Of a DNA stretch of 64,000 nt, positions 5,051 to 23,233 are shown piece by piece. This DNA comes from an uncultured bacterium (lineage in GTDB: Bacteria > Fidelibacterota > Marinisomatia > Marinisomatales > UBA1611), in assembly GCA_964525185.1 (NCBI GenBank), contig CAZGFQ010000001.1, positions 29,486-93,485 of the forward strand, in the 5' to 3' direction. The notes under the pieces are model-generated. The model was not told where the DNA came from and ran no database searches. It saw nothing but the letters and a program-made list of their open reading frames with translations. The first letter of the stretch is position 1; each line of letters begins with the position of its first letter. A program made the translations under genes and the position numbers.

Positions 5051-5135
5051 AAATGTTTCTTTATTACTCCTTGATTCGTATAATGGACAAAATGAGTCCA
5101 CTTTCGATAAGAAAATATAGAAACTGAATATTAAA

Positions 5136-5234: not shown

Positions 5235-5558
5235 TTAATCAATTTTAATGTTATATAATTCTTCGAAAAGATCTGTTTTCATGATTCGTATTGCATCCCA
5301 AGTCAATTTTGTACATACTCGGGCACATACCTGACATCCAATGCATTCATCAAATCGTACTTGTACAGGTGGTATGGGTGAACCATATTTTTCTATTGGT
5401 ACTGGCTCAATACAATCTACGGGACAAAATGGAACACACGCCTGACAGCCAGTGCAATTATCTTCATCCACAATAGCCATAACTTTGGGGCGTTTTTTCT
5501 TTAGGTTTGGGACATCTGGTAATTCAGGAATCCCCTTAAAATGATTGTAAACTGCCAT
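5235..5558 (-). CDS. 2x[4Fe-4S] ferredoxin
   Basis: It carries CTGCQACVPFCP and CIGCQVCARVC motifs. Confidence 0.85.
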   Translation of the reverse strand: MAVYNHFKGIPELPDVPNLKKKRPKVMAIVDEDNCTGCQACVPFCPVDCIEPVPIEKYGSPIPPVQVRFDECIGCQVCARVCTKLTWDAIRIMKTDLFEELYNIKID

Positions 5559-5630: not shown

Positions 5631-7163
5631 CTAAAAACGATATGTCAACCCAAAATAGCCAAAAGACCTTGTATAATCTGCATCTTTTGAATAATCAATA
5701 CTTGTATACATGTTTAAATATTTACCTATTTTTTTTGAAATACTGATAGAGAATGTATGCTGTGTAAAATCATTCCAATTATTTCCGAACCCAAAAGTAT
5801 ATATTTCATAATCAGCATTAAAAAAACCATTTCTCAAAATGGGCTTGGAAATACCCCATTTATTTTGGAAACCTTTTAACAATTGATTTTGAATCATAAT
5901 ACTATTCCAATCAATCGATAAGCCATTTTGCGTTGGGTTAGTTCTATAATTGAATGAACGTACAGAAGAATATTGATCTGTCCCAGATTCTCTTCTGAAA
6001 TTGGATCCTAATTGAAGGATGCCCCAACGTTTTGTTTGTACTTTGAAGGCGTTATACCATCCATTTTTTAATTCGGACTGAAATAAAGAATCTGGCACTA
6101 AAATTTGAGATTGTTGATAAATAATTTGTTGGCGAGATGTATACCGAGATCGAAAAGTTATTTTTCGGGTTAATTTAATTTTAAGTGAAAATTGTGAAAA
6201 TGTTGATTCAAGTATTTCTCTGTTATAAACAGGATTATTTCTGTAAAAATCGAATGTTTGATACAATTTGACGGATAATTGATTTATGGGAGAATAGGAC
6301 ATTTTTGAATAGATGAATTCACGATCAATATCTGATCCAGCGTATTGCCCAACAAAAGCAATGCTACCTGTAAAATGGTGTTTCGGAAATTTGACTTTTG
6401 AAAAAAGTCCTAATTTTTTTATGTTTGTATTGAATTGGTACGATTCTGGATCTGGTTGAAGTCCACCCAAACCACCAATAATAATATTTTTCATGAGCGG
6501 GGATGTTGCTAATAAACCATCTGTGGCACCAATGCCTGAAAGTTCTGATGCAAAAACTCTCCCCAATTGAAAGAATGGTCCTTTATTTTTTATACCAAAA
6601 CTTGCTCGAGCTTGGTAAAGGGTAAATTGTTGATTTTGTAAATTGCTTCTTCCATAAATACCTATTTTAAAATGTTTTAGAGCTGGAGCACTTAATCCAT
6701 ATTGCAATGTTCCAATTCCTGATTGTTCTGAGACTCCGTCGGGAAGCGATTGAATTGTGGACCGAATGGATAAATGCCCCGATTGATTCAATTTCAGTTT
6801 TTCTTTCTCAGGTTTTTGAGGTTGATTAGTGGCAGGAGCAATTGGACTATCTGGAATAATTACATTGGTTTTTTCAAATTGAACTCGATCACCTATTTGA
6901 ATGGATTCTATAGGAACAAGGGGGGAAGAGACGGATGAATTTTTAGCTGAATGGGTGATGACCAAATCGCCTATAATTTCTGATCGGCGGAAAAGTTGAA
7001 GTGTATCCCCTACAGAAACCCCCTGTGAAGTTCCAATATCACAATACACTTGGTCTGCTGTCAAGTAAGTGACTTTTCCCTGCCCCGTAATGATTTCCAT
7101 ATTCTGTCCAAAACCAATCGCTAACAGACATATAAAAAGATTCTTTTTTAAAATATTAATCAT
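5631..7163 (-). CDS. Outer-membrane beta-barrel protein (putative porin partner of the multihaem cytochromes)
   Basis: The preferred start is the ATG at 7163 (MINILKKNLFICLLAIGFGQ is signal-peptide-like), giving an 8-nt overlap with the upstream gene. The track start at 7277 would overlap it by 120 nt. The body has long alternating-hydrophobic segments and the terminus is ...YFGLTYRF. No family was recognised. Confidence 0.6.
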   Translation of the reverse strand: MINILKKNLFICLLAIGFGQNMEIITGQGKVTYLTADQVYCDIGTSQGVSVGDTLQLFRRSEIIGDLVITHSAKNSSVSSPLVPIESIQIGDRVQFEKTNVIIPDSPIAPATNQPQKPEKEKLKLNQSGHLSIRSTIQSLPDGVSEQSGIGTLQYGLSAPALKHFKIGIYGRSNLQNQQFTLYQARASFGIKNKGPFFQLGRVFASELSGIGATDGLLATSPLMKNIIIGGLGGLQPDPESYQFNTNIKKLGLFSKVKFPKHHFTGSIAFVGQYAGSDIDREFIYSKMSYSPINQLSVKLYQTFDFYRNNPVYNREILESTFSQFSLKIKLTRKITFRSRYTSRQQIIYQQSQILVPDSLFQSELKNGWYNAFKVQTKRWGILQLGSNFRRESGTDQYSSVRSFNYRTNPTQNGLSIDWNSIMIQNQLLKGFQNKWGISKPILRNGFFNADYEIYTFGFGNNWNDFTQHTFSISISKKIGKYLNMYTSIDYSKDADYTRSFGYFGLTYRF

Positions 7164-7962
7164 GTTCACTCCCTGATGGGTGGCATTGATAACAAGCATT
7201 AGAATTATAAATATATCCCGATTCATCATCATGTTCATCGTCCATTTTACTTTGACGATGATCATGGCATACCCCATTTAAACCACAGGAAAATTCAGTG
7301 TAATCATTGGGATTAATATGACATTCTGCCGTGCAGGAAGTCCACTCATTTCGATGCTTTCCATTATATATAGGAAATAAAATATCATGATGTGACATAT
7401 CAATGGGTGACCAGGACCATGTGTTATGGCAAAGAATACAATCGGTATTATCAGGATGATTTCCAGCAATAATACTTTCTGATATTTCGGATTGATGGCA
7501 ACCATCACAATCCGTAGGCAACCAAGATGACCAGTTTTGTGAATTGGTTTGATGGCATTGGTTGCACAAGAGTGATTGATGCATTCCTGCCAATGGGAAT
7601 AGAGTCAATTCATGGTTGAAACCGGAAACAGACGTTTCCCAACTAATGGGAGAATGACATCGCTCGCAATCTAATCCATTTGCTTCTTGATGAATATCGA
7701 AATGGCAGTCACTACATTCAGTTGATTGATTTGAAAATTGATGTTTTTCTTCAACTGTATTTCCAATATGACATTGAATGCAATCAGCAAATTTATGTTG
7801 CCCTAACAATGTATATCGTGTTGTATTATGGTTAAAAAGTGGCTCATGAGATAAAGGTAGCCATGATTGTTCTCCATGGCAATCTGAACAGTCCATTGTT
7901 GTAATAATTTGATTTTGACTTAAACCAATAGTCAGTGTTAGCGTAATCATAATCCAAATCAT
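7156..7962 (-). CDS. Multihaem c-type cytochrome, 8 CXXCH + 1 CX3CH
   Basis: By manual count the motifs are CSDCH, CIQCH, CSDCH, CERCH, CNQCH, CDGCH, CILCH and CYQCH, plus CTAECH. It has a signal peptide and a 4-nt ATGA overlap with the upstream gene. Its N- and C-terminal modules are paralogous to those of the 925-aa cytochrome. Confidence 0.9.
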   Translation of the reverse strand: MIWIMITLTLTIGLSQNQIITTMDCSDCHGEQSWLPLSHEPLFNHNTTRYTLLGQHKFADCIQCHIGNTVEEKHQFSNQSTECSDCHFDIHQEANGLDCERCHSPISWETSVSGFNHELTLFPLAGMHQSLLCNQCHQTNSQNWSSWLPTDCDGCHQSEISESIIAGNHPDNTDCILCHNTWSWSPIDMSHHDILFPIYNGKHRNEWTSCTAECHINPNDYTEFSCGLNGVCHDHRQSKMDDEHDDESGYIYNSNACYQCHPSGSEHD

Positions 7963-10736
7963 TTGAATATTGGTTTATTATATTTCTTTTGTTTTTTAAT
8001 CCAAAAACGTAATAAATCACCGTCATCTCCATCATCTTCACTTCCATTCGGATGACAATTATAGCAGGCAGAACTTTCATAAACATAATCCGATTCTTCG
8101 TCATGTTCATCATCCATTTCACTTTGATCATGGTCGTGACAAACACCGTTTAACCCACACGAAAAATCCGTATAATCATCTGGATTGACATGACATTCCG
8201 CCTCGCAGCTGGTCCATTCATCCTCGTGTTCTCCTGAATAAATGGGGAAGTAATCCCCATCATGATCAAAGGTCACATCATCCCAATCCTCCGTGGTATG
8301 GCAGGCTTCGCAATTGGTGGGATCCCCATCATTATGCTCTTCATAAAAATCTTCCATATGACAAGATGCACACCCCTCGGTAATAGATGAATGATTAAAA
8401 TCGACGTCTTCCCAATCTGATGTTGAAGTATGGCATTGTTCACATTCGGTTGGGAATCCATCATCATGTTCTTCTTCAAAATCCGCCATGTGGCAATCTG
8501 CACATCCTGTTGTGATGTTGGTATGTTCAAAGGTTGCTCCTTCCCATGTATCTGTTCCTGTATGGCAATTTTCACATGTTTCAGAAAAACCTTGTCCAGT
8601 TGTATGGGGCGGATTTGACGCATTTTGGTAATCCACAAAATGGCAGGTGGCGCAAGGCGCACTCAAAGTATGAGCATAAATATCAGGCGACCAACCTAAA
8701 GGATTATGACATTCTTCACAAATATCAACAGAATATCCATAAACACTATGGTCAGGATCAGTTGTTTCATTAAAATCGGATAAGTGACATTGGCCATCCT
8801 GACATGAATTTGGTGTATTATTAATAATATTATTGATGTGACAATCATTACAGTCAGTCGTTAAATGTAATCCAAACAGAATAAAAGATGTTTGATCTTC
8901 TGTATGGGGAAACGGATCAATAATCCATTCCGAGGAATTGGGGTGGCAGAGCGCACAATCTGTGCTAATATTATTATTGCCATGGATTGGATCAGTACTA
9001 TTTTCATGTTCCGGAGTATGACATTCTTGACAATTTGTTTCTGTGAAATTGACATGATCAAAAATCAATTCTTCCCAAGATTGATCCGCATGGCATAACG
9101 CACAATTGTTGTTTATATTATGAGATGTATGGTTATAATCTGACGTTGTGGAATTGGTTGTAGCCAACCCACCATCAATATGGCATCCAGAGCAGTCTGA
9201 TGGTAAATCAAAATTTCCAACATCATGGCATTGTTCACAATCGATTAAAGCGTGGGCTCCACCAAGAGGAAAGTCTGTTAAGGAATGGTCAAATTCTGCC
9301 CCTTCCCATGTTTCAGTTGAATGGCACACTTCACAATTTTGACTATATTGGTCATCTGAATGAGATGGAGAATCAGGATAAACAGATGTGCCTGTTTCAT
9401 TAAAATCTTGCTCGTGACAAGACCAACAGTCGTTGGGTGTATTATTGTATATTTCATTTACATGACAGGATTCGCAATTAGTAGTAAGGTGTGCACCTGT
9501 CAAAAGATAATCTGTTTGTGAGACTGTATGGGTGAAGGGCGAAATAGTCCACGATTCTGTTGTGGCATGACATACTTCACAATCGGGACTGATATTTCCA
9601 TCAGCATGTGGTGGGTTGATGGAATTGATTTGTTCGGGAATATGGCAGGATTTGCAATCCGTATTGGTAAAATTGATATGATTAAAAATAAGTTCAGCCC
9701 AATGTGATCCCACGTGGCAGTTTTCACAGGTTTCATTGATTTGATGTGACTCATGATCATAGTCCGATTGGAGAGAATTTGTCGAAGCTAATCCGCCATC
9801 AACATGGCACCCAGCACAATCCATTGGAAGATCATAATTCCCGTCGCCGTGACATTGGTTACAGGTAATTGTATTATGCGCATCTAGAAGTGGGAATTCC
9901 GTTTCATTATGATCAAAAACTGCACCTTTCCATGTGCTCGTTGAATGGCATGCTAAACAATCTTGAGAATACCCAGCTTCAATATGACTTGGAGCATCAG
10001 GGAAAACGGATGTTCCTGTTTCGATAAATTCTGTTTCATGGCAGGACCAACAATTTTCCGGAAAATCATATGTTCCCCCCGAATGACATTTAGCACATGG
10101 GGTAGATTTATGGGCTCCATCTAAAATAAAATCTGAAACTAATTCATGGACAAACGTAGATGGTGTCCAAGATGATTGACTCGTTGAATGGCATTCTTCA
10201 CAGTCAGTATTTAGTCTTGATTCGATGTGAGCTGGATTTGTGGAACGATCATAATCAAGCCGATGACAATCATAACAATCAGTCGGGGTCAAATCAAAGT
10301 TTGTCATAGGTGTTTCTGTGTGGCATTCCCGACATAGTGTTTGTTTATGAGAGCCTAATAATGAAAATTGTGTTAATTCATGATTAAATGTCTTAGTTGT
10401 GACTTGCCAGGAATCATTTCCATGACATTGAGCGCAGTCATTTCCTAACTTATTTTTATGTACATCCAGATGGCATGATGAACATTCATTTTCATCTAGA
10501 CTAAATTGATGCTTTTCAGCCACGGTATTTCCTTGGTGGCAAGATGCGCAATCTTGAATACGATGACTCCCTTGCAATGGGAAATTGGTTATTGAGTGGG
10601 AGAACCCTTTTAAACTCAATGTAGTCCAATCATCTCCGCCATGACAATCGCTACATTCAAGCCCAGCCACATTGAGTTCTTGATTCTGAGCAGAAATAGT
10701 CCATTGCAATAGCATGATTAAAAAGAACCTTTTCAT
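7959..10736 (-). CDS. Giant multihaem c-type cytochrome, 32 CXXCH + CX4CH + CX3CH
   Basis: It has a signal peptide (MKRFFLIMLLQWTISAQ). By manual count there are 32 canonical CXXCH motifs, plus CQDGQCH (residue 645) and CEAECH (residue 844). F.H..T.F.L.G.H....C..CH units recur throughout, and a 4-nt ATGA overlap is present at both ends. Confidence 0.9.
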   Translation of the reverse strand: MKRFFLIMLLQWTISAQNQELNVAGLECSDCHGGDDWTTLSLKGFSHSITNFPLQGSHRIQDCASCHQGNTVAEKHQFSLDENECSSCHLDVHKNKLGNDCAQCHGNDSWQVTTKTFNHELTQFSLLGSHKQTLCRECHTETPMTNFDLTPTDCYDCHRLDYDRSTNPAHIESRLNTDCEECHSTSQSSWTPSTFVHELVSDFILDGAHKSTPCAKCHSGGTYDFPENCWSCHETEFIETGTSVFPDAPSHIEAGYSQDCLACHSTSTWKGAVFDHNETEFPLLDAHNTITCNQCHGDGNYDLPMDCAGCHVDGGLASTNSLQSDYDHESHQINETCENCHVGSHWAELIFNHINFTNTDCKSCHIPEQINSINPPHADGNISPDCEVCHATTESWTISPFTHTVSQTDYLLTGAHLTTNCESCHVNEIYNNTPNDCWSCHEQDFNETGTSVYPDSPSHSDDQYSQNCEVCHSTETWEGAEFDHSLTDFPLGGAHALIDCEQCHDVGNFDLPSDCSGCHIDGGLATTNSTTSDYNHTSHNINNNCALCHADQSWEELIFDHVNFTETNCQECHTPEHENSTDPIHGNNNISTDCALCHPNSSEWIIDPFPHTEDQTSFILFGLHLTTDCNDCHINNIINNTPNSCQDGQCHLSDFNETTDPDHSVYGYSVDICEECHNPLGWSPDIYAHTLSAPCATCHFVDYQNASNPPHTTGQGFSETCENCHTGTDTWEGATFEHTNITTGCADCHMADFEEEHDDGFPTECEQCHTSTSDWEDVDFNHSSITEGCASCHMEDFYEEHNDGDPTNCEACHTTEDWDDVTFDHDGDYFPIYSGEHEDEWTSCEAECHVNPDDYTDFSCGLNGVCHDHDQSEMDDEHDEESDYVYESSACYNCHPNGSEDDGDDGDLLRFWIKKQKKYNKPIFK
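8805..10052 (-). repeat. In-frame tandem duplication (2 x ~208 codons, 8 CXXCH each) inside the 925-aa cytochrome gene
   Basis: Residues 229-436 (CWSCHETEFIETGTSVFPDAPSH...) align colinearly with residues 437-644 (CWSCHEQDFNETGTSVYPDSPSH...). A third, truncated copy starts at residue 645 with CQDGQCHLSDFNETTDPDH. Confidence 0.8.
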
Positions 10737-12139
10737 CGGATATCACCCGTGAGTTTGTGACAATCAACGCACCGGCTTGGGATAGGTTGATAGCGCGTAA
10801 ATATTCCCACCTCATCTCGTTCAGTTGGGTGGCAATCTTGACAAGGAACATTTTGATGTTTTCTGTCTAAAGGGAATTGGGTTGAATCGTGTTGAAATTC
10901 TATAGTATTAAATGATGCTGATATGTGGCAAGATTCACATGTATTATTGTAATGAATCGCAAATTGATTTCGGTGTTCATCTTTATGACAAATTTTGCAT
11001 TCCGGGTTTTCCCATGTAAACTGAATTTGTGATTTTCCCGATTTTGTCTGGTAGGGTTTATGACATTGATTGCACGGAACTGCCATATGCCCACCATCCA
11101 ATACAAAACGCGAAATAAGGTGCATAGAAAAAGTAAATGTGGTTGGTTTAAATCCATTTACGGTATGACATGCAGCACAATCGCCTCCATCTTGTCTTCG
11201 GGTAAATTGTCCTTCATGATAATCGGCATGGCACGCTTGACAAGAAAGGTATAAGGGGAGAGTACCTGCTAAAGTTTGGTTATGGCAATCCATGCATTTC
11301 ACATTTGCATGTTTTCCGTCCAATGGGTATTTCGTTTTGGAATGATCAAAAGATTTTGTTTTTTTCCAATTTTCTGTGATGTGGCAGGATTCACATTTAT
11401 TCCCGTAACTGCCTTTGTGATAATCAGTATGGCATGAAGTACAGGATTCAAAATCGATTCCGGTAAGTTGCTGAACGGGTGGATTCCAATCTAAATGTTT
11501 TGTATGACATTTTTCGCAATCCACTTTTTTATGGGCTCCAGTCAGATGAAATTGAGAATTTTTATGATTAAAAGATTTGGATGCATCGGTCCAATTATTC
11601 ACATTATGACATGATTGACAATCAGATCCAACTTCACCTTTATGAATGTCACTATGGCAACTTTGGCAATCTTGAGATAAACCTAAAAAAGTGCGATCTA
11701 ATACAGGGAATGTGGTATTTTCATTTGCCCATTTGATGATAGGTTCCCAGACAATATTTTCTGCAGAGTGACATTCTCCACATTTAACTTTTCTATGTTT
11801 ACCTTCTAATCGATATCCCGTTTCATTATGGTCAAATTTGGCCATATTTTTTGGCCAAAATACCAATTCAAATTCTTTTCCATTATGATCGGAGTGGCAT
11901 AGACCACAATCTTTTTTTCGATCATCCCGATGATAACCCTTGTTTTGGTCCATCTTAATTTTCAAAGGTGTATGGCATTTTACACAGCCATCTGAAATTT
12001 CTTTTTTACCCAACTCATGACATTGGACGCAATTGGAGGTGCCTTCCAAATCCGCGTGGTATTTGGATAAAGGTCCAGGGGAAAATTGACTAAATATTAC
12101 CGATGTCATCATCATGAATTGAAGGATCAGTTTTTTCAT
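10733..12139 (-). CDS. Multihaem c-type cytochrome, 17 CXXCH
   Basis: The count of 17 CXXCH motifs is manual. The ATG at 12139 gives a signal peptide (MKKLILQFMMMTSVIFSQ), whereas the track start at 12166 is a TTG. Confidence 0.9.
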   Translation of the reverse strand: MKKLILQFMMMTSVIFSQFSPGPLSKYHADLEGTSNCVQCHELGKKEISDGCVKCHTPLKIKMDQNKGYHRDDRKKDCGLCHSDHNGKEFELVFWPKNMAKFDHNETGYRLEGKHRKVKCGECHSAENIVWEPIIKWANENTTFPVLDRTFLGLSQDCQSCHSDIHKGEVGSDCQSCHNVNNWTDASKSFNHKNSQFHLTGAHKKVDCEKCHTKHLDWNPPVQQLTGIDFESCTSCHTDYHKGSYGNKCESCHITENWKKTKSFDHSKTKYPLDGKHANVKCMDCHNQTLAGTLPLYLSCQACHADYHEGQFTRRQDGGDCAACHTVNGFKPTTFTFSMHLISRFVLDGGHMAVPCNQCHKPYQTKSGKSQIQFTWENPECKICHKDEHRNQFAIHYNNTCESCHISASFNTIEFQHDSTQFPLDRKHQNVPCQDCHPTERDEVGIFTRYQPIPSRCVDCHKLTGDIR

Positions 12140-12172
12140 TTGGTGCACATTCAGGTTGCGTGTCAAGACACA

Positions 12173-13039
12173 TTAACCATAACTCTCATGCGTGATTTGC
12201 TTTTTCTCAATCCCCAAGCCATCCAGAGAAAGCAAGACAGATTCCAAAAATCTGGGGGCAGGGGCAATTCCTTCTTTTCGTGCAGAGATCTTTTCATATT
12301 TTGATATACCCGGACCGCACAAATAAATCTGTGGGTGGTCCATTTTAGCCAATTCTCGTTCAATCCGTTCAGGGGTGATTCTGCCTGTTTGATAGGGAAG
12401 ATTAAATCCATCCGGTTCTTCACGAGTGAATAAAAAATCAACCGTTAATTGATCAGGGAATTCCATTTGTAAATCGATCAATTGTTTTCCAAAAATGGTA
12501 TTGTTCCAAGATTGATTGCTATAAACCAAGGTGTGTTTGATATCCGGGTAAAATTTTAAGGCATATTTTAATATACTATAATTGGGGACAATACCACTTC
12601 CTGCACAAATGTGTAGAATTTCGCTGGGCAAGGGTTCATTTTTTGGCAATGTGTAAGGTCCCGTAAATCCGGTCACTATCATTTTTGAACCTTTGTGCGT
12701 TCTTTTCGCAAGGATTGGAGAAAGGAGAGGCGGATACTTGGATTTTCCCGGATAATACATTTCTTCTTTGATGGTAATAGCCAGATATTTTTCATCTGGA
12801 GAACTGGATAAAGAATAAGCTCTCGGACTTTCCTTTTTACCTTTTTTATCTTCCAAAAAAGCCGTCCATCTTTCCAATGCTACAAATTGATGGGGATCAA
12901 TGGTCAAAAAATGCCCTGGTTCATAATCCAATAAATCATTCCCGGTAAACAGAATTAATGTTGTTGTATCAGGCGTCTCTTCGATTACATCTGCGACCAT
13001 GATTTCAAGTTTTTTTATTTTTTTACGATTTGTGCTCAT
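12173..13039 (-). CDS. Ferredoxin-NADP reductase-like FAD/NAD(P)-binding oxidoreductase
   Basis: It carries RAYSLSS (the RxYS FAD motif), the ICAGSGIVP nucleotide-binding motif and LCGPG near the C-terminus. There is no signal peptide. Confidence 0.8.
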   Translation of the reverse strand: MSTNRKKIKKLEIMVADVIEETPDTTTLILFTGNDLLDYEPGHFLTIDPHQFVALERWTAFLEDKKGKKESPRAYSLSSSPDEKYLAITIKEEMYYPGKSKYPPLLSPILAKRTHKGSKMIVTGFTGPYTLPKNEPLPSEILHICAGSGIVPNYSILKYALKFYPDIKHTLVYSNQSWNNTIFGKQLIDLQMEFPDQLTVDFLFTREEPDGFNLPYQTGRITPERIERELAKMDHPQIYLCGPGISKYEKISARKEGIAPAPRFLESVLLSLDGLGIEKKQITHESYG

Positions 13040-13077
13040 GCTTAAAATAGCTTCTCTTATAGTATTAACGACTGAAA

Positions 13078-14391
13078 CTAAGCCTTTGCTTCAACTTTTT
13101 TCCCAAATTCAATCCCGATAGAATTAAGCAGAGGAAAGGGTAATTCACCACCGGCGAATATAAATGTATAATCATTTTCTAATTCAACGGAAGAATCGGG
13201 AGTTTGCAAGGTGACTGTGGTGTTCGTAATTTTTTTTGGATTAGAATTTAAAACAGCTTTCAATAATCCATTTGAAATTGCTTCTTCAATATGGGATTCA
13301 TTTCTCGCTTTCAGGCGAAAGAAATTTTCCTTCCGATAAGAAATGGTTACCTCATTCCCCTCCTGATGGGCAAGTCCCAGAGCAGCTTCAATGGCACTAT
13401 CTCCACCGCCAACGACTAAAAGTTTTTTATGTTTATAGGTTTCTGCATCAATGAGCTTATACATCACTTTCCCTAATTCTTCTCCTGGAATGCCTAATTT
13501 CCTAGGAGTTCCTCTTCTGCCCAAAGCTAACACGACTCTGGAAGCCGAGGCGGGGCCAGAAGATGTTTCTATCGTAAAATTCCCTTGTTCGCCTGCAATT
13601 CCTTTCAATTGATGATTTGAAAGTAATCGAACTTTTTGTTCTCGGATAACTTTTTCCCAAATTGCCAATAAATCTTCTTTTTCATATTCGCCTTTTTCCA
13701 AAGCGCCAAATAAAGGTAATTCTACTGGCTGAACCAATACCAACTTTCTTCTTGGATATTGCAAGATGGTTCCACCGGGTTGATCCTGATCCAATACTAA
13801 ATAATTGAGGCCCAATTCCTTAGCTCGCAATCCTGCGGACAACCCAGCAGGCCCTGCACCAATAATGACTACATCAAATTCAGCTTTTGAACTTTCATCC
13901 TTATTGCGATGTATATGATCCACAGCCGTAACGCCATGGCTGATGGCATTTTTAATTAAGGCTAAACCGCTCAATTCACCAATAATATAGAGCCCTGGAA
14001 TATTGGTTTCAAAATCGTCCGATAATTGAGGAATATCTTCTCGTTGACTGATATCTCCTAATCCAATTTCAATCCCAGAAACCGGACACGCTTCAGCGCA
14101 TTTTCCATGTCCTACACAATGGCTGCCGTGAATGATAGTTGCTTTCCCGTCAATCAATCCCAAGACTGTACCTTCTGGACACGCATCCACGCAAATACCA
14201 CACCCAATACATAGCGATTGATTTATGATCGGATGTTGTAACAAAGCTTTATCTTGTCTTTTTGCGCGGGTTTCCTCGAGTCGTTTTCGGGTAAGAGCGT
14301 CCTTTTTTTTCATGGTTTGAATGTAGGGAATCAAAAAAATAAGGATAATCATAATGCCGATTCCCCATGAGAGTAATAATTCTGTATTCAT
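13078..14391 (-). CDS. Membrane-anchored Fe-S flavoprotein (ferredoxin domain + FAD/NAD(P) pyridine-nucleotide-disulfide-oxidoreductase-like domain)
   Basis: It has an N-terminal TM helix, CIGCGICVDACP, and CVGHGKCAEACP (His in place of the second Cys), followed by DVVIIGAGPAGLSAGLRA and LLVVGGGDSAIEAA dinucleotide folds. The ATG at 14391 overlaps the upstream stop by 1 nt; the track start at 14403 is a GTG. Confidence 0.8.
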   Translation of the reverse strand: MNTELLLSWGIGIMIILIFLIPYIQTMKKKDALTRKRLEETRAKRQDKALLQHPIINQSLCIGCGICVDACPEGTVLGLIDGKATIIHGSHCVGHGKCAEACPVSGIEIGLGDISQREDIPQLSDDFETNIPGLYIIGELSGLALIKNAISHGVTAVDHIHRNKDESSKAEFDVVIIGAGPAGLSAGLRAKELGLNYLVLDQDQPGGTILQYPRRKLVLVQPVELPLFGALEKGEYEKEDLLAIWEKVIREQKVRLLSNHQLKGIAGEQGNFTIETSSGPASASRVVLALGRRGTPRKLGIPGEELGKVMYKLIDAETYKHKKLLVVGGGDSAIEAALGLAHQEGNEVTISYRKENFFRLKARNESHIEEAISNGLLKAVLNSNPKKITNTTVTLQTPDSSVELENDYTFIFAGGELPFPLLNSIGIEFGKKVEAKA

Positions 14392-15257
14392 CAAAACACC
14401 CACGTATAACCCATGGCAACGACCACGGTAACATGAATAATCATGATAACAATCATCGTGTATGCAAATGGCTTATGAATCACATGCCAATAATGAAAAA
14501 GAGAATGGGCTGCAGACCAAAATGCAATTTGTCGATCCATTTTAACAATTTGACGTAAAGAATGCTTAAAAGATTTCATATCGGAATCTGAAACAGAAGC
14601 GGATGATTGAATATCTTTTTTAATTTTTTGCCATTTGAACCAACCGGTAATATCCATAAAAAGGATAGTAAAAATGCCCCATAACCCTCTTTTTTCAATT
14701 TGATCTGCACCAGATAAATCTCGGATGTGGTTAATGGTTTGGTTAGAAATACTAAATTTATTTTGAAAAGTTTGAATGATGTTCGAGAGATTGTCTTTGA
14801 ATTCATCTCTTGTTAATTCTTTCCCACTGACACGATGAGGAATCTTGATATAGATATAACGTCCGATAAATCCACTGGAAGCCACAGCTACCATGGACCA
14901 ATAAGAGATAGAAACCAAACCACCAAATTTAAAAGCTGTATGAAAGGTGACGAGAATAGGTCCAGCTATTCCGAGAAAAATATGATAATTAAGCCATGTA
15001 GGCAATTTGCCCCATTTCTTAAAAATTCCAACACGCTTTCTCAGGGAATACGCAAACATAATGATCATCATTAAACTACCTGCAATTCCAAGTCCATGAC
15101 CAATAAATCCACCTGGTTTCCACGCGCGATGAAGAGCAATTCGGGGACGATCAATCATGGATGCACCATAATAGTCCCCCGCCGTCAGTAAAATCCACAC
15201 AACAAACCCAAAGGTTATGAATGAAAAAAAGGTAATGATATATCGATGGATATTCAT
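14391..15257 (-). CDS. Six-TM membrane protein with two H-x13-H pairs (candidate dihaem-b, ferric-reductase/NOX-like transmembrane domain)
   Basis: One TM helix reads YHIFLGIAGPILVTFH and the last reads HKPFAYTMIVIMIIH, each with two His exactly 13 residues apart. The preceding LRKRVGIFKKWGKLPTWLNYHIFLG resembles the ferric-reductase domain motif. A loop of ~100 aa separates TM4 and TM5. Confidence 0.55.
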   Translation of the reverse strand: MNIHRYIITFFSFITFGFVVWILLTAGDYYGASMIDRPRIALHRAWKPGGFIGHGLGIAGSLMMIIMFAYSLRKRVGIFKKWGKLPTWLNYHIFLGIAGPILVTFHTAFKFGGLVSISYWSMVAVASSGFIGRYIYIKIPHRVSGKELTRDEFKDNLSNIIQTFQNKFSISNQTINHIRDLSGADQIEKRGLWGIFTILFMDITGWFKWQKIKKDIQSSASVSDSDMKSFKHSLRQIVKMDRQIAFWSAAHSLFHYWHVIHKPFAYTMIVIMIIHVTVVVAMGYTWVF

Positions 15258-15369: not shown

Positions 15370-16059
15370 TTGGAGCAGTTTGTGCACATTCTCATCATAG
15401 AAGATGAATCTTTTATTGGCGAACATATAAAATCGTCTTTGATAGATCGTGGGTTTTCCTGTAAATGGTTTCAGAATGGGGAAGATGGATTAGAGTCCGC
15501 TGTAGTGGATTCTTATGATTGTATTATTCTGGATAGACGCCTTCCAGATATGGAAGGGTTGGATATTTGCAAAGAAATTCGATATCAAGGCATCAGTACC
15601 CCCATTATTATGTTAACAGCAATGGCGGATATTGACCAAAAAGTGGAGGGGTTGAATGCTGGAGCGGATGATTATATGACTAAACCCTTTTCTGCCGATG
15701 AATTGATTGCACGGTTAAATGCCGTTGTACGTCGAATTACATTCCAAAAAAAACCAATACTTCAATTATCGAATGTAGAATTAAATCCATTAAAACGAAC
15801 TGTAAAAGTGGATGGCAAATTGATTACAATGTCAAATCGAGAATTTATATTATTACAATATTTAATGCACCATGGAGGAAAACCATTAACACGGAGTCAA
15901 ATATTTGATCATGTATGGGGTGATTCCGGAGGTTCCGAATCTAATGTAGTTGATGTATATATAAATTACATTCGTAAAAAAATTGATATAAATCCAAAAA
16001 TGGATTCGCACATTATTACAATGAGAGGATATGGGTATAGGTTCAATGAAGATGCCTAA
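15370..16059 (+). CDS. OmpR-family response regulator
   Basis: A receiver domain (ILIIEDE...ILDRRLPDMEGL...TA..D) is followed by a winged-helix output (LSNREFILLQYLM...VWG...NVVDVYINYIRKKI...TMRGYGYRF). The track start is a TTG, and an in-frame GTG at 15382 is an alternative. Confidence 0.9.
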   Translation: MEQFVHILIIEDESFIGEHIKSSLIDRGFSCKWFQNGEDGLESAVVDSYDCIILDRRLPDMEGLDICKEIRYQGISTPIIMLTAMADIDQKVEGLNAGADDYMTKPFSADELIARLNAVVRRITFQKKPILQLSNVELNPLKRTVKVDGKLITMSNREFILLQYLMHHGGKPLTRSQIFDHVWGDSGGSESNVVDVYINYIRKKIDINPKMDSHIITMRGYGYRFNEDA

Positions 16060-17434
16060 ACTTACACTTCATGCTAAAATTGTTCTTTGGTCTTCATTGG
16101 TTGTTGGCATCATTCTAATTGTGTTTAGTATAGAATCCATTTTATTAATTAGGAATAAATTAGGTGAGGATGTAGATCATAGATTAGAATCGGAAGCACA
16201 CGAAATAATTCAAACATTTGGATTAGTAGATGGACAAGTAAAAATTATACATGAATTTGAATGGGAAGAACCTCACCACGTTTCTGAAGAAGATGCTATA
16301 TACATTTTATACGCAGATGAAACTCGAAAAGAAATAATAAGGTCGAAAAATTATTTAGGAAAAGCATCTCCTATTTCGTCTATTTCATTTGATTCCTTAA
16401 ATACAACATTCAAAACACATATAGTTAATGACATAAAAATCCGTTTTGCAGCAAAACCTTTTAGTTTTAATGAGACACATAAAGGTTGGCTCATAACAGG
16501 AATGACTTTTGATGGATTGAACCATGTTCAAAATGTTATTTTGGGTGTATATGCCTTTATTTTTCCGCTTGCAATGCTCATCGCTTTTTTAGGCAGTTCA
16601 GTTGTGGCTAGAAAAGCACTTGAACCTGTGTTAGATATATCAGAAACAGTTCGACATATTCATTCTCGTAATTTAGATCAAGAACTCAATGTTTTGGATT
16701 CAAAAGATGAAATTGCCCATTTAGCAGATACAATAAATGATCTACTCAAACGATTGCGCATAAGTTTTAAAACTATTCGCCAATTCACAGCTAATGCTTC
16801 TCATGAATTAAAAATACCATTATCTATCGTTAAGGCAGAATTAGACCAATTACAAAAAGTAGATCAAAATACGTTAAAAAACGAATCTTTAGAAAGAACT
16901 AAACTTGAATTAAATCGAATGGCGAAACTTATTGGTGACTTGTCAACGCTTGCGAAAACGGATACAAAACAAATCATGATCAATAAACAAACCGTTTGGC
17001 TAAACGATATAATTCATGATGAAATTGAACGATATCGACCTACATCAAATGAGAAAAATATTGCATTAGTTGTAGATAAATTACCATCAGTTTCAGTGCA
17101 TGCTGACCCTCACTGGATGCAGGTTTTAGCATCAAACTTACTTGATAATGCTATTAAATTTTCACCTAATGGTTCAACCGTTAACATACACATTATTGAT
17201 AAAGATAAACAATTTTATGAATTAAGTATTACAGATAACGGCCCTGGAATTCAGGATACTGAAATTGAGAATGTAACACGTAGATTTTATCGATCTGAAC
17301 CGGCTAATAATATATCAGGTAGCGGTTTAGGATTATCAATAGTGGAATGGGTTGCGAAATCTCATGGAGGAGAAATTGTTTTTAAAAATAATGATGGCGG
17401 TGGATTAACCGTCACTCTCACGATTCCAAAATAA
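16031..17434 (+). CDS. Sensor histidine kinase (2 TM, periplasmic loop, HAMP, HisKA, HATPase_c)
   Basis: It has the H-box FTANASHELKIPLS, the N-box LLDNAIKFSP, and G-boxes DNGPGI and GSGLGLSIV. Alternative starts lie at 16046 and 16052. Confidence 0.9.
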   Translation: MGIGSMKMPKLTLHAKIVLWSSLVVGIILIVFSIESILLIRNKLGEDVDHRLESEAHEIIQTFGLVDGQVKIIHEFEWEEPHHVSEEDAIYILYADETRKEIIRSKNYLGKASPISSISFDSLNTTFKTHIVNDIKIRFAAKPFSFNETHKGWLITGMTFDGLNHVQNVILGVYAFIFPLAMLIAFLGSSVVARKALEPVLDISETVRHIHSRNLDQELNVLDSKDEIAHLADTINDLLKRLRISFKTIRQFTANASHELKIPLSIVKAELDQLQKVDQNTLKNESLERTKLELNRMAKLIGDLSTLAKTDTKQIMINKQTVWLNDIIHDEIERYRPTSNEKNIALVVDKLPSVSVHADPHWMQVLASNLLDNAIKFSPNGSTVNIHIIDKDKQFYELSITDNGPGIQDTEIENVTRRFYRSEPANNISGSGLGLSIVEWVAKSHGGEIVFKNNDGGGLTVTLTIPK

Positions 17435-19088: not shown

Positions 19089-22085
19089 TTACCACTCATC
19101 TTCATCGTCCCATTCGTCCTCATCGTCATCACTTTCTTCTTCATCAAAATTATATCCATTTTCGTCAAAATACTGTTTCACAATATTAGTAATATCTTTT
19201 TGACCTTTCATAGCCCAAATGAAATCACGAATCCCTTCTAACATTGCAGTTGTATCGCCATCCAAAGCTATTAAATGTTTTCCATAAATATCCGAAGCAT
19301 ATTCATCTTCAAATAAATCAGGTGTGGGGAGGAAAGGAGCTGGCATTTTTGTTCCGGGCATAATGACCATCGGATCTTTTAACCAATCAACAATCCATTC
19401 AGCACGAAGGCGATCTTTTGCCATGGCTAAATTGGGCGCCCAAGCTTGAGCACCTTGAATAGGGAATGTTGAACCATAGAAATGGCAATTGTTACATGCT
19501 CCAAAATCTGCACTTGCTAACTTTTCGCCTGCTTTATACTTACCCGAAATAGAGACAGAATGATCTGACTCATACGCAAGCAATTGATTGTCAGCATACT
19601 GGAATGAACGAATAATAGAATTCCATTGGTCATCTGTCATATTAAAAGAAGGCATCCGAACTTGTAGATTCGGTCGAATGGTTGTTGGCGCATTAAAGAA
19701 ATTAAATAACCAGTCGGGTTGTGTTTTACTGCCTTGTGTATTCAAGTTTGGTGGAGAAAAATCTGCAGGTCCGATTACATCAGCAATTTGGCCACCAAAA
19801 TTGTCAATAATATGGCATCCTTGACAGTTAAACTCTTTAATAAGTTTTCGCCCTTCATACACAAGTTCATCACTCACATATTGATCGGCTTGCATTTTAG
19901 GACTCACTTCATTTTCTGTAAAACTCAAAATGGCAGTCACAAGCGCTTCAACTTCTATGTCACTGAAAGCAAAGTTTGGCATTCTCAATTTATCTTCAGC
20001 AGGTGACTCTTTCCCATGATCAAAAATTCTAGGGTTCTCCAATTTCCGTGTAAACCAGGCATGATTTACATGTTCAATGTCATGGATATAACCGAAATCA
20101 AGTTTAACAACTGGTTTTGATCCTTCGAATGTTAATTCAGTCCCAATTGGTTTTGCATCTTCATATCCGGGAATATTGTGGCATCCAAAACATCCGTAAT
20201 ATCGGAAACTTTTATCAGCAACATATTCCATTTTCTCATCATGAGACATATTTGCTAATGTAGATTTTGCAAATGCTTCAGTATTCATTTTAGATAACCA
20301 ACCAAAAGCAATAGTGTCTAATTGTGCTTTATCTAATTCAATATTATCCATTGCTTCAAATTCAGGATTTGTAAAAGATCTTAAGTAGGCTGTAATATCT
20401 TTTGCTTCTTGGTCCGATAATCTTAAATCGGGCATACGAGTTCCCGGCCAATAATCACTAGGATTTTTAATCCAATTGTATACCCATTCAGCGGATCCTT
20501 TTGACCCAAGGCCAATCAGATTTGGCCCATGGTCCTTAAGAATAGACTCAATAGAAATATCTTCAGTCATATTTTCAGATTCCGGTTCAACTATATGACA
20601 ACCACGACACCCAACGGCATTAAAAAGTTCCTCACCTTTAACCGCATCACCCATAAATCTATGATCGTTTTCTGTCGATACTTCTTTCCCATTAGGGAAC
20701 AAATAATGAACCATAGTCATAATTTCAGTATCATTACGTTTTACCATGTCTGAACTAGAATTATTATCCTGTCCAAAGAAATGTGGCATTCGAGTGTTAT
20801 GTCTGAATTCTCTTGGAGCTTTTATCCACTTTGCTGTCCAATTTTTATCTAATTTTTCAGATACTTTACCTAGATCCGGCCCTGCTTTTCTGCGTTCTTC
20901 ATATCGTTGAATTAAGTGGCACCCATTACATCCACTCTTTTCGATGAGAGATAGTCCAAGTGTGAGTTTATCAGCATCATTGATATAAGCTTCTTTTTGA
21001 TGACACTTAAAACAGCTTGCTTCGGTATAACTAGACGGAAGCATTGGCTGTAACCAATGATGCATTTTCTCCCAATCATACTCTTCTTCCCATCGCTCTT
21101 TTTCTTCTTCAGAGTCGGGCATATGAACGGCAGAAACGAAGGAAGTTCCTCGCGCACGTCCAGAGTGACAGCCTGTACAACCAAATTCCGTCATTGGATG
21201 TGGAGATGCTGAACTTAAATATGTGTCCAAATTAGGATGCGTTCTATAAGGTTGTTCTGCTTCAGCAAAATCTGGATTTGTAATACCTAAATGACAACTG
21301 GTACATCTATCCACTGATGGAACTTGTGTGAAATTCACATTGTACTTGATGTCTGGTACAACAATTTGTTTAACCTTGTAATACGGATTCATAAAATCAA
21401 GAATAGGTAAATCACGGACTAAATCACCCACTTTATTCATGAATGACATATGTTTTCTATCTATTTTTTCTAACTTATTTTGAACAAGTAACACATCAGC
21501 CAATACACGATTTAATTCTTCTGTAGAAGCTTTTACCTCGCTATTCATTTCTTTTATAAGTTTTTCAGTATTTGCAATGTCTGTTTCAGTTGCTTCTTTT
21601 TTTAATTTATATGAATGAAGCAGGTCCTTTGCCTCATCAAATAAGAGTCTATTTTCAGCCGAATGGTCTTCACCATGATCTGAACCATGGGTATTATCTT
21701 TTTCTACTAAATACTTTAAAGCATCAATTTCTGAATTTTGACCTTGGTAATCCATATTATGTTTATAAAAAATACCATTTAAAGTCACTAATCGAGCGTC
21801 TAGGGAATCGGCTAAATGTGTTTTAGCATCTAAATTATTTTGTGCATCCTGAGCTTTTTCTTCGTAGGAGACACGTTCATTTTTAACCGTCTCAAGCTCT
21901 TCAGCTAATTCAGCTTCTGCCATTTGAATTTCAAGTTGTCTGAAATTCCGTTGGTAGACTTTGTATTCGTCGTCATTATCATCAATAAACATCCAAACAA
22001 ATGAAATCATAAAAAGGATGCTTGAAAGGGCGAACCATTTATTAAGTTGATGAATATTCCAATATCTTTCGTCGTTTTTAAACAT
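19089..22085 (-). CDS. Membrane-anchored octahaem c-type cytochrome of the Rieske/cyt b complex (TM + coiled coil + 3 haems + 5 class-I-like monohaem domains + acidic tail)
   Basis: By manual count there are 8 CXXCH: CTSCH, CTGCH, CFKCH, CNGCH, CRGCH, CFGCH, CQGCH and CNNCH. The N-terminal TM is FALSSILFMISFVWMFI, followed by a ~190-aa heptad-rich segment. Five repeats carry W(I/L)K.P....(T/V)(R/K)MP. The tail is EEESDDDEDEWDDEDEW. The gene lies 8 nt downstream of the cyt b gene. Confidence 0.85.
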   Translation of the reverse strand: MFKNDERYWNIHQLNKWFALSSILFMISFVWMFIDDNDDEYKVYQRNFRQLEIQMAEAELAEELETVKNERVSYEEKAQDAQNNLDAKTHLADSLDARLVTLNGIFYKHNMDYQGQNSEIDALKYLVEKDNTHGSDHGEDHSAENRLLFDEAKDLLHSYKLKKEATETDIANTEKLIKEMNSEVKASTEELNRVLADVLLVQNKLEKIDRKHMSFMNKVGDLVRDLPILDFMNPYYKVKQIVVPDIKYNVNFTQVPSVDRCTSCHLGITNPDFAEAEQPYRTHPNLDTYLSSASPHPMTEFGCTGCHSGRARGTSFVSAVHMPDSEEEKERWEEEYDWEKMHHWLQPMLPSSYTEASCFKCHQKEAYINDADKLTLGLSLIEKSGCNGCHLIQRYEERRKAGPDLGKVSEKLDKNWTAKWIKAPREFRHNTRMPHFFGQDNNSSSDMVKRNDTEIMTMVHYLFPNGKEVSTENDHRFMGDAVKGEELFNAVGCRGCHIVEPESENMTEDISIESILKDHGPNLIGLGSKGSAEWVYNWIKNPSDYWPGTRMPDLRLSDQEAKDITAYLRSFTNPEFEAMDNIELDKAQLDTIAFGWLSKMNTEAFAKSTLANMSHDEKMEYVADKSFRYYGCFGCHNIPGYEDAKPIGTELTFEGSKPVVKLDFGYIHDIEHVNHAWFTRKLENPRIFDHGKESPAEDKLRMPNFAFSDIEVEALVTAILSFTENEVSPKMQADQYVSDELVYEGRKLIKEFNCQGCHIIDNFGGQIADVIGPADFSPPNLNTQGSKTQPDWLFNFFNAPTTIRPNLQVRMPSFNMTDDQWNSIIRSFQYADNQLLAYESDHSVSISGKYKAGEKLASADFGACNNCHFYGSTFPIQGAQAWAPNLAMAKDRLRAEWIVDWLKDPMVIMPGTKMPAPFLPTPDLFEDEYASDIYGKHLIALDGDTTAMLEGIRDFIWAMKGQKDITNIVKQYFDENGYNFDEEESDDDEDEWDDEDEW

Positions 22086-22093
22086 ATGTCACT

Positions 22094-23212
22094 CTAAATG
22101 TTGAAGAACCATTCGGGAATGGCTATGATGTATTTAAGATTAAATAACCAACGCATATACATTTTAATGGGTAATGATAACATGGATAAACCAAATAGCA
22201 TTAGAAATGTATATCGCACTGGACCGATTTCCTGAAAATAATTTTTTAACCAGGATTTAGCCAATATGATTGGCAGGACGCCCATATAACCAATCATAAC
22301 TACAAAACCCATGCTTTCTCTCAGTAATATATTGGAAGGCATACCAGTCTCTAACATTTTTACCCAAATATATTCAGATAAATTGACATTGTTCAAAGGT
22401 ACAACTTTATGTGCATCCCAATATTCGAATGGGCCAAAGAAATTCCAGTTTGGACCACGGAAAAAAGTTCCAATAACAATTAGAAACAGCCATAAAACAA
22501 CCCATCCATACATAAAAATAAACATCCCTATACGACGTTCTTTGAAAGAATAATAGCCATCACCTTTTTTATTTATATCCATATAAGGGATTGCCATCAT
22601 TCCAATAATGATAAACATTGGAAATACAATACCAGCAATCCATGGATCGAAATACACAAGCATTTCTTGTAATCCTAAGAAATACCACGGCGCTTTTGAT
22701 GGGTTTGGTGTTGCTGCAGGATTAGCGGGTTCTTCTAATGGCGCTGCCACTAAAATGGACCAAACAATTAGAAACACCATAAACAAAATCAGAGCAATAA
22801 ATTCTATGTAAACTAAATCAGGCCAGACCAATACTTTATCATCTGGATCATTGTATTCCATAGGTTTAAGACCATTTTCTAATCGATCATCATTTTGATA
22901 TGCTTGATACATACTCCACCAAATCGTGATAAACATAGAATAGATCATTAGAATAATGGGGAAATTATCTGCCTTTGTTAGGGTAACATTGAAATTTTCA
23001 TCGAAATATCCGACGACAAAAAAGAAGGTAATGGCAATCATTCCACCATAAAACCCTGGTTTTGTCCATAGACGCCAAATTCCAAATTTCCGATGTATTT
23101 TTTCAAACCAATCTGTTGGTGGAAATACAAATGGAAAAGCAACAGTCAGAAACGTAAAGCTAACCGTTGGGGCTGAAAGAATATCAATTATATCTTTAAA
23201 TGTTTGAAGCAC
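22094..23212 (-). CDS. Cytochrome b C-terminal subunit (subunit-IV-like, extended, multi-TM)
   Basis: KAPWYFLGLQEML is a variant of the PEWY Qo-site motif, and extra TM helices lie on both sides. The GTG start has a GAGG 8 nt upstream. Confidence 0.8.
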   Translation of the reverse strand: MLQTFKDIIDILSAPTVSFTFLTVAFPFVFPPTDWFEKIHRKFGIWRLWTKPGFYGGMIAITFFFVVGYFDENFNVTLTKADNFPIILMIYSMFITIWWSMYQAYQNDDRLENGLKPMEYNDPDDKVLVWPDLVYIEFIALILFMVFLIVWSILVAAPLEEPANPAATPNPSKAPWYFLGLQEMLVYFDPWIAGIVFPMFIIIGMMAIPYMDINKKGDGYYSFKERRIGMFIFMYGWVVLWLFLIVIGTFFRGPNWNFFGPFEYWDAHKVVPLNNVNLSEYIWVKMLETGMPSNILLRESMGFVVMIGYMGVLPIILAKSWLKNYFQEIGPVRYTFLMLFGLSMLSLPIKMYMRWLFNLKYIIAIPEWFFNI

Positions 23213-23233
23213 AAGAAACCTCGTAATTTGAGT

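Follow-up and report, generated by a model that had tools for sequence, protein, structure and literature searches.

A 64,000-nucleotide stretch of DNA from an uncultured bacterium of the Marinisomatales (contig CAZGFQ010000001.1; hereafter the window) carries on its minus strand a cytochrome operon of seven tightly packed genes (15257-5631). The operon is headed by genes for a small inner-membrane protein (IMP), a membrane-anchored Fe-S flavoprotein and a soluble FNR-like flavoprotein, followed by multihaem cytochromes c and a putative outer-membrane barrel. Judged by its closest relatives, the window belongs to the Marinimicrobia (Fidelibacterota). These three genes probably form the cytoplasmic and inner-membrane end of a trans-envelope conduit resembling the PCC3 porin-cytochrome clusters, which would carry electrons from NAD(P)H to the cell surface independently of quinones. 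The evidence for this lies in the conserved His pattern of the IMP, in the recurrence of the Fe-S flavoprotein beside it across distant phyla, and in a second, unrelated flavoprotein that takes the same place next to IMP relatives on proteobacterial plasmids.

The IMP contains 13 His and no Cys. A sequence-only reading of the window had singled out two pairs of His in this 288-residue protein, and both are present: H92/H106 (WLNYHIFLGIAGPILVTFH) and H261/H275 (WHVIHKPFAYTMIVIMIIH) are its only H-x13-H pairs. Each belongs to a W-x3-H-x13-H motif, W88-H92-H106 on helix 3 and W257-H261-H275 on helix 5, and helix 4 carries an SGxxG motif (S128-G129-F-I-G132). The pattern is weak in a single sequence because at least two H-x13-H pairs arise in 8.5% of shuffled IMP sequences; it is conservation that carries the weight. 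Across 229 full-length homologues, with identity down to ~28%, H92 and H106 are conserved in 100%, H261 in 98% and H275 in 97%, so that the four His on which the sequence-only reading was built hold up throughout the family and outrank every other His of the protein. W88, W257, S128, G129 and G132 are also conserved, the signature residues ranging from 94 to 100%. Three further His are frequent in the same homologues, namely H258 (94%), H54 (79%, and invariant among 28 closer homologues) and H255 (74%). These are unexplained by a two-haem model and might mark a third cofactor or a docking or entry site.

The AlphaFold model of the IMP, with a predicted local distance difference test (pLDDT) score of 82, has five helices at residues 2-31, 51-73, 85-106, 114-137 and 224-287, and a helical insert of ~110 residues between helices 4 and 5. 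A strict hydropathy scan recovers only three helices, an undercount attributed to the richness of helices 3 and 4 in His, Gly, Pro and Ser. The loop between helices 2 and 3 holds six Lys or Arg residues. By the positive-inside rule this loop and the helix 4-5 insert are predicted to be cytoplasmic, which would put H92 and H261 close to the cytoplasm and H106 and H275 close to the periplasm. So placed, the His pairs would have the geometry of a two-haem transmembrane wire. NOX likewise has its His pairs on the third and fifth helices and a cytoplasmic loop between helices 4 and 5, as predicted for the IMP, whose pairs have 13 intervening residues. The IMP is best described as a putative di-haem-b transmembrane electron carrier, both its haem b binding and its topology being predictions from sequence.

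Proteins of this kind have been described before. The PCC3 and PCC4 porin-cytochrome clusters were defined by He et al. (2017, Front Microbiol; PMC5566968), whose clusters contain a hypothetical IMP of ~300 residues. This protein has five helices, the fourth bearing SGxxG and the third and fifth each bearing W-x3-H-x13-H. The authors saw in it a resemblance to cytochrome b and to the NOX/FRE FRD domain, and suggested that it binds two haems b (PMC5566968). The IMP of the window fits the motifs of this signature residue for residue, and agrees with it in length and helix number. Since an IMP with NOX/FRD resemblance was already published in 2017, that part of the present analysis is not new. 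The surrounding genes also correspond, as PCC3 consists of a porin, a periplasmic ~21-haem cytochrome, an extracellular ~34-haem cytochrome and the IMP (PMC5566968), and the window combines 17-, 32(+2)- and 8(+1)-haem cytochromes with a putative barrel of 510 residues in one operon. This agreement is at the level of motif and architecture. PCC3 was reported only from Proteobacteria, as four genes with a quinone-linked model, whereas the hosts of window-type cassettes are Marinimicrobia and, for the most part, lineages of the FCB group and Acidobacteriota. The window cassette further differs from PCC3 in gene order, in an extra 8-haem cytochrome and in having the Fe-S flavoprotein as a constant member.

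Beyond this signature the IMP can only be placed remotely. The five-helix W-x3-H-x13-H proteins form an unnamed family of 2,773 clusters at 50% identity. The relevant Pfam families are Ferric_reduct (PF01794), Ni_hydr_CYTB (PF01292) and DUF4405 (PF14358), with gathering cut-offs of 28, 30.1 and 26.7 bits, which we take to belong to one clan of two-haem membrane cytochromes. The sole Pfam match of the IMP is to Ni_hydr_CYTB at 19.6 bits, under the cut-off; it does not match the Ferric_reduct profile, and a search of NCBIfam returned nothing. Among 28 homologues, sub-threshold matches were obtained to DUF4405 in 24, to Ferric_reduct in 17 (best score 26.0 bits) and to Ni_hydr_CYTB in 11, and these fall on helix 3 and helix 5. 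One truncated homologue just reaches the DUF4405 cut-off (26.8 vs 26.7 bits). In the 17 homologues, Ferric_reduct model positions 1-61 align with residues ~55-116, the very stretch in which the sequence-only reading saw a likeness to the ferric-reductase transmembrane domain. That likeness is recovered in homologues, always below the cut-off, and not in the IMP itself. Sequence and profile searches of the PDB with the IMP found nothing relevant. As all of these profile matches of the IMP are sub-threshold and no fold neighbour was found, it is at best a remote relative and not a demonstrable member of Ferric_reduct.

Some support for haem binding in this wider group is available, as a DUF4405 protein has been experimentally shown to bind haem b (PMC11334425). 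DUF4405, MsrQ-like and PepSY-like cytochromes are, like the IMP, small membrane proteins with four central conserved His (PMC11334425). DUF4405-type proteins have six helices and ApbE-flavinylated periplasmic partners (PMC11334425), whereas the IMP family has five helices and c-type multihaem partners.

The functional context of the IMP comes from its neighbours. All open reading frames (ORFs) of 80 genome loci and of metagenome loci were clustered, and 81 related loci were counted. They represent over ten phyla, among them Marinimicrobia, Calditrichota, KSB1, Zixibacteria, Krumholzibacteriota, Ignavibacteria, Gemmatimonadota, Acidobacteriota and Marinamargulisbacteria. Recurrence is confined to four families: the IMP is found in 72 loci, multihaem cytochromes in 65, the Fe-S flavoprotein in 59 and the putative barrel in 34, and the next commonest family, the FNR-like protein, in 5. 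Nearly everywhere the IMP is succeeded by a 17- or 20-haem cytochrome, after which come a cytochrome with 16-60 haems, one with 8-10 haems and finally the barrel. No quinol dehydrogenase family, such as NrfD, NapC/CymA, ImcH or CbcL, recurs in the 81 loci.

The Fe-S flavoprotein is close to obligatory in this set. Of the 31 loci in which both flanks are complete, 30 encode it within 8 kb and on the same strand, and 18 of the 19 loci that lack it are truncated contigs. Its gene lies directly downstream of the IMP gene in 27 loci, directly upstream in 18 and at the far end of the cassette in 16, and even an IMP homologue with as little as 28% identity has it as the next gene downstream. In the window the two genes are joined by a TGATG overlap, in which the ATG of the flavoprotein sits on the stop codon of the IMP. 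The pairing occurs in the cultured Caldithrix abyssi, within a six-gene operon. Plasmid pEMTOL02 of Emticicia oligotrophica (78197-89995) encodes an IMP, an Fe-S flavoprotein, two cytochromes of the c3 family and a hypothetical protein of 538 residues, and this plasmid-borne cassette suggests horizontal mobility. The E. oligotrophica IMP has the accession WP_015031196, and its flavoprotein partner is of the WP_015031197 type. In this cultured member of the Bacteroidota, the cassette stands directly after a gene for a 1,028-residue CcsA cytochrome c biogenesis protein.

The flavoprotein of the window has 437 residues when read from its ATG, and 441 from an alternative GTG at 14403. As noted in the sequence-only reading, it combines an N-terminal transmembrane anchor (residues 6-24), two ferredoxin motifs (CIGCGICVDACP and CVGHGKCAEACP) and two dinucleotide-binding folds (GAGPAG and GGGDSA), the latter being invariant in homologues. 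The ferredoxin domain is putatively of the 2x[4Fe-4S] type; its first motif is a canonical CxxCxxCxxxCP and the second is C-x2-H-x2-C-x3-CP. A segment rich in Lys and Arg follows the anchor, and this order would place the catalytic part in the cytoplasm; helix and basic stretch are both conserved across phyla. Pfam matches are to Pyr_redox_3, at 1e-42, and to Fer4 families. The C-terminal 260 residues are nearest, by sequence and by fold, to YpdA/Bdr, low-Mr thioredoxin reductase (TrxR) and TrxR-type FNR, with YpdA/Bdr 7a76 as the best PDB match (1.6e-24 by sequence, 3.7e-23 by Foldseek). On sequence and modelled fold, including its two dinucleotide folds, the protein is assigned to this group, scoring below the equivalog cut-offs for thioredoxin or bacillithiol-disulfide reductase (TIGR04018, 160 bits vs 339.9; TIGR01292, 76 vs 343).

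All seven Cys of the flavoprotein fall inside the ferredoxin motifs. It follows that the protein is not a disulfide reductase and that its FAD must exchange electrons with the Fe-S clusters; a role in thioredoxin or bacillithiol reduction was considered and rejected, as no Cys lies outside these motifs. In an alignment of 58 homologues, 98% share the His of motif 2, and the second Cys of motif 1 is only 62% conserved, with Thr or Ala in about a third. An unusual cluster ligation is likely from this pattern, and the cluster at the electron exit may be His-ligated or of the 3Fe type. A conserved S-Y-R...R motif behind GGGDSA hints that the donor may be NADPH.

A second form of this partnership was found on proteobacterial plasmids. 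A tblastn search of plasmids returned short IMP homologues of 228-252 residues in Alteromonas macleodii, Legionella, Methylophaga, Methylocystis and Qipengyuania, with identities of 24-27% in full-length alignment and 27-34% in the tblastn segment (helices 2-4). Two of them, those of Alteromonas and Legionella fallonii, were aligned and retain H92, H106, H261 and H275, both motif Trp (W257 among them) and the helix-4 glycines of SGxxG; the Legionella fallonii protein is annotated 'iron reductase'. A protein of 560-660 residues directly precedes the short IMP in all five plasmid loci, and a multihaem cytochrome c of ~250 residues follows it in four, the fifth being the Methylocystis plasmid, for which the PLSDB gene table is incomplete and lists no cytochrome. 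In Alteromonas the preceding protein consists of a transmembrane helix followed by FAD_binding_6, NAD_binding_1 and 2Fe-2S ferredoxin domains.

Like the window, this triad, exemplified by Alteromonas macleodii pAM1A3, combines a homologous IMP with a membrane-anchored NAD(P)H flavoprotein carrying Fe-S and with a multihaem cytochrome c; in the triad these two flank the IMP gene on either side. It differs in its shorter IMP with a smaller cytoplasmic insert, in its unrelated FNR-fold 2Fe-2S flavoprotein, and in having no porin and no giant cytochromes. Its neighbours are genes of metal-resistance type, and the plasmid variant hints at metal reduction or detoxification. Multicopper oxidase, a heavy-metal-responsive regulator, DUF411 and hydrogenase maturation genes are found among them. 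The triads are probably the 'MHC + IMP + other redox protein' clusters in Supplementary Table 6 of He et al., where MHC denotes multihaem cytochrome and the partner is listed only as an unnamed 'other redox protein' (PMC5566968). The association of one IMP family with two unrelated NAD(P)H Fe-S flavoproteins, both membrane-anchored and predicted to face the cytoplasm, points to an exchange of electrons between the NAD(P)H pool and the IMP.

The third gene of the window encodes a member of the FNR superfamily by both motifs and profile. The RxYS and GxGxxP motifs named in the sequence-only reading are found as RAYS at residue 73 and GSGIVP at residue 147, the NAD_binding_1 score is 36.4 bits (cut-off 22), and the PDB matches are plant-type FNR and cytochrome b5 reductase at E ~6e-8. 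No signal peptide is predicted, as had been stated, and neither a transmembrane helix nor an Fe-S domain was detected. The gene occurs in only 5 of the 81 loci, all from close Marinimicrobia, which makes it a lineage-specific accessory and not part of the core.

It is conceivable, if doubtful, that the FNR-like protein is a functional third subunit that passes electrons straight to the haem protein, in the way that Fre serves MsrQ, or else to the flavoprotein's Fe-S clusters. Its gene lies inside the tight operon, between the flavoprotein and the first cytochrome, and keeps this position in the five Marinimicrobia loci at 62-95% identity, yet it is missing from the other 76, many of them also from Marinimicrobia. 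Proteobacterial IMP relatives do use an FNR-type module, and the FNR-like protein aligns end to end with that of the Alteromonas IMP partner (23% identity, E 8e-13), but it has neither the Fe-S domain nor the membrane anchor. Its homologues of 54-59% identity in Bacteroidota, Ignavibacteriales and others are, moreover, stand-alone genes with unrelated neighbours. The protein may act as an accessory that gives NAD(P)H a second point of entry, or it could be a passenger, in either case gained by one Marinimicrobia lineage.

These results also bear on the broader proposal of the sequence-only reading, in which NOX-like chemistry was split over separate polypeptides and coupled to multihaem cytochromes. 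The linkage of IMP, flavoprotein and cytochrome agrees with this proposal, and the proteobacterial plasmid triads lend it independent support; the FNR-like gene drops out as a core component. The conserved dehydrogenase is the TrxR/YpdA-type Fe-S flavoprotein, which does not have an FNR fold.

From the gene content, motifs, conservation and synteny we infer the following route. NAD(P)H, the presumed donor, would be oxidised at the FAD of the membrane-anchored TrxR/YpdA-type flavoprotein. The two Fe-S clusters of this protein, one with an invariant His in a ligand position, would relay the electrons to the cytoplasmic-side haem b of the IMP (H92 and H261), with which the flavoprotein presumably forms a physical complex. 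The transmembrane step would bring them to the periplasmic-side haem b (H106 and H275), from where they would move to the 17-haem cytochrome, on to the porin with its 8-haem cytochrome and finally to the 32-haem cytochrome at the surface. Such a route would bypass the quinone pool, much as if NOX or yeast FRE had cytochrome wires attached. Outward flow would be favoured by the membrane potential and the redox span, so that the system would serve as an electron sink delivering reducing equivalents to extracellular acceptors.

The downstream 17-haem cytochrome, 468 residues from an ATG at 12139, has a signal peptide, and its homologues follow the IMP in 77 loci, with 17 or 20 haems in other phyla. 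The start of the 32(+2)-haem cytochrome gene overlaps the upstream stop by 4 nucleotides. Other loci have a large 16-60-haem cytochrome at the equivalent position, and the 32-haem protein is probably a surface-exposed wire. Homologues with 8-10 haems precede the barrel gene in many loci, and the 8-haem protein is probably a porin-inserting cytochrome. The putative barrel protein has a signal peptide and ends in ...GLTYRF, and it has no match in Pfam or NCBIfam. Its homologues stand at the end of the cytochrome array in 34-40 loci, nearly all with a barrel-type C-terminal signal (...GYRF, ...GVNF). Its assignment as a barrel is putative and draws on position, conservation and this signal.

The proposed system can be compared with several known ones. 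Its likeness to NOX/FRE lies in the sequence of cytoplasmic NAD(P)H, flavin, two stacked bis-His haems b and an acceptor on the outside. The dehydrogenase may be a separate polypeptide, as in MsrQ-Fre. The IMP differs from NOX/FRE in having five helices, not six, with no significant match to Ferric_reduct or by fold. The dehydrogenase of the window is of TrxR/YpdA type with Fe-S clusters, in contrast to the FNR fold of NOX, FRE and MsrQ-Fre, and the acceptor is a multihaem cytochrome c instead of O2, Fe(III) chelate or MsrP. The Tmc/Hmc and Qmo complexes of sulfate reducers have a similar architecture of periplasmic multihaem cytochrome c, membrane cytochrome b and cytoplasmic Fe-S (flavo)protein. 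These differ in their unrelated subunit families (NarI/HdrE-type cytochromes b and HdrD/HdrA-type proteins), in carrying electrons inward to sulfate reduction, and in having no outer-membrane module.

Several points weigh against the quinone-independent conduit. With the exception of the one truncated homologue, the IMP and its family stay below the curated Pfam cut-offs for Ferric_reduct, DUF4405 and Ni_hydr_CYTB. A Foldseek search of the PDB with the AlphaFold model of the IMP found nothing at E < 0.4, the top matches being unrelated helical proteins, and comparison of the IMP alignment profile with E. coli MsrQ, FdnI and YodB gave probabilities of <1%, although the templates were single sequences and the comparison is uninformative. 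The topology was derived from the positive-inside rule alone, and the helix 1-2 loop has 4 positive charges. The ferredoxin domain of the flavoprotein was modelled poorly by AlphaFold, with pLDDT < 50. Apparent IMP-cytochrome and IMP-flavoprotein fusions, which would have spoken for partnership and topology, are frameshift or alternative-frame artefacts: candidates P0220, P0264, P0259 and P0227 contain low-complexity out-of-frame stretches, and the ORFs of 784-850 residues at L061, L070 and L082, all from Acidobacteriota, use a frame that differs from that of the IMP match. PCC3 was still called functionally unverified in 2023-2025.

The published hypothesis for this motif family is a further such point, as He et al. 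proposed a quinone-active cytochrome b role for the PCC3/PCC4 IMP (PMC5566968), and proteobacterial PCC3 clusters were reported as four genes with no flavoprotein. According to this alternative the IMP trades electrons with the (mena)quinone pool in the manner of CbcL, FdnI and NarI, and the flavoprotein is an NAD(P)H:quinone reductase feeding the pool locally or serves another purpose. Most characterised bacterial di-haem membrane cytochromes b are indeed quinone-active, and the weak Ni_hydr_CYTB match of the IMP points in the same direction. We nonetheless regard this alternative as unlikely, given the near-obligate synteny and translational coupling of the IMP with an NAD(P)H-type Fe-S flavoprotein and the second, unrelated NAD(P)H Fe-S flavoprotein at the equivalent place in proteobacterial relatives. 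No quinone-site motif was identified either, though no specific motif was testable.

It is very improbable that the conduit instead takes up electrons from extracellular Fe(II), minerals or partner cells to reduce NAD(P)+ or ferredoxin for biosynthesis. In its favour, PCC3 first came to light in organisms that oxidise Fe(II), in which the flow of electrons would be inward, the PCC3 IMP gene was up-regulated in iron-oxidising Sideroxydans CL21 cells, and a Rieske/cytochrome b complex and a possible monohaem-barrel protein lie nearby in the window. Against it, such flow would run against the membrane potential, reduction of NAD(P)+ (~-320 mV) by Fe(II)-level donors would be strongly uphill, no energy-coupling subunit recurs in the loci, and the hosts include heterotrophs (Caldithrix, Emticicia, Marinimicrobia).

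The genes of the operon are listed in the table. ATGA overlaps also occur between genes of the operon, in keeping with its tight packing. Scans for sigma-70 promoters and terminators across the operon gave counts equal to those in shuffled sequences.

Table. Genes of the cytochrome operon in the window, from the head of the operon downstream.
Feature	Coordinates	Strand	Basis
IMP (inner-membrane protein), 288 residues	14391..15257	-	ORF and motifs
Fe-S flavoprotein, membrane-anchored, 437 residues	13078..14391	-	Pfam, motifs, PDB sequence and fold matches
FNR-like flavoprotein, 288 residues, soluble	12173..13039	-	Pfam NAD_binding_1, motifs
Multihaem cytochrome c, 17 CxxCH, periplasmic	10733..12166	-	ORF, haem count, Pfam Cytochrome_C7/c3
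Large multihaem cytochrome c, 925 residues, 32 CxxCH and 2 variant motifs, signal peptide	7959..10736	-	
Eight-haem cytochrome c, 268 residues, 8 CxxCH (+1 variant), directly ahead of the barrel gene	7156..7962	-	
Putative outer-membrane beta-barrel (porin), 510 residues from ATG at 7163	5631..7163	-	

An OmpR-type response regulator and a histidine kinase are encoded on the plus strand at 15370-17434, divergent from the head of the operon. This pair may control the cytochrome operon; just 3 of the related loci have a similar kinase. On the minus strand the barrel gene is immediately followed by genes for a 2x[4Fe-4S] ferredoxin of 107 residues (5235-5558) and an Rrf2-family regulator (4625-5101). 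As these two are not conserved in related loci, they probably lie outside the cassette.

The Rieske/cytochrome b complex adjoins the operon on the minus strand at 19089-24592. It comprises the Rieske protein (24592-24044), a cytochrome b6-like protein near Geobacter ExtP (266 bits, just below the cut-off), a subunit-IV/ExtQ-like protein of 372 residues and a membrane-anchored cytochrome c of 998 residues with 8 CxxCH. This complex could be a quinol-linked route of the same organism. Further along the minus strand (1778-2929) lies a gene for a protein of 383 residues with a signal peptide, one CxxCH near its N-terminus and the C-terminus ...ETQFFF, which has no match in Pfam or NCBIfam. Its layout resembles that of fused monohaem cytochrome-porins of the Cyc2 type. 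The operon of this protein also encodes a dihaem cytochrome c (3718-4638), a lipoprotein and a 421-residue Big_2 protein with two CxxCH.

No description of the flavoprotein partner was found in the literature searched, which included work on Caldithrix, Ignavibacteria Pcc, extracellular electron transfer (EET) in peat, Effluviviacota and Methylobacter, or in surveys of outer-membrane cytochromes. What appears to be new is that the IMP is almost obligately paired with Fe-S flavoproteins of NAD(P)H type, which belong to two unrelated folds, and that it is widely distributed outside Proteobacteria. Both argue for a quinone-independent entry to PCC3-like conduits. A wider generalisation is tentative, with the balance tipped slightly against it: the W-x3-H-x13-H family as a whole may consist of modular quinone-independent oxidoreductases that transfer electrons across the membrane from NAD(P)H to multihaem cytochromes c. 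It would then be the prokaryotic equivalent of NOX/FRE, with two unrelated NAD(P)H Fe-S flavoproteins recruited as partners. The cassette is present in the cultured Caldithrix abyssi, on a plasmid of Emticicia oligotrophica and, in its short form, on plasmids of Alteromonas macleodii, which makes the hypothesis directly testable.

To our knowledge, the quinol pool is the point from which electrons depart the inner membrane in all well-studied Gram-negative EET systems (Mtr/CymA; Pcc with ImcH, CbcL or CbcBA). A gate dedicated to transfer from NAD(P)H to cytochromes would be a different link between metabolism and the outside, conserving no energy, fast and independent of quinones. Such a gate would be useful to fermentative or oxygen-limited heterotrophs in need of an electron sink. 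If the proposal is correct, it would explain what the 'conserved inner membrane protein' of the PCC3/PCC4 clusters, unverified since 2017, does, and would identify the IMPs of the FCB group, Acidobacteriota and other bacteria as the inner-membrane entry of complete cytoplasm-to-surface conduits. The compact pair of IMP and flavoprotein could also help to wire engineered cells to electrodes. The cassette is widespread, its more than ten phyla including the globally abundant marine Marinimicrobia, and if the wider generalisation holds, these ocean bacteria could discharge cytoplasmic reducing power directly onto particles while leaving the quinone pool unused.

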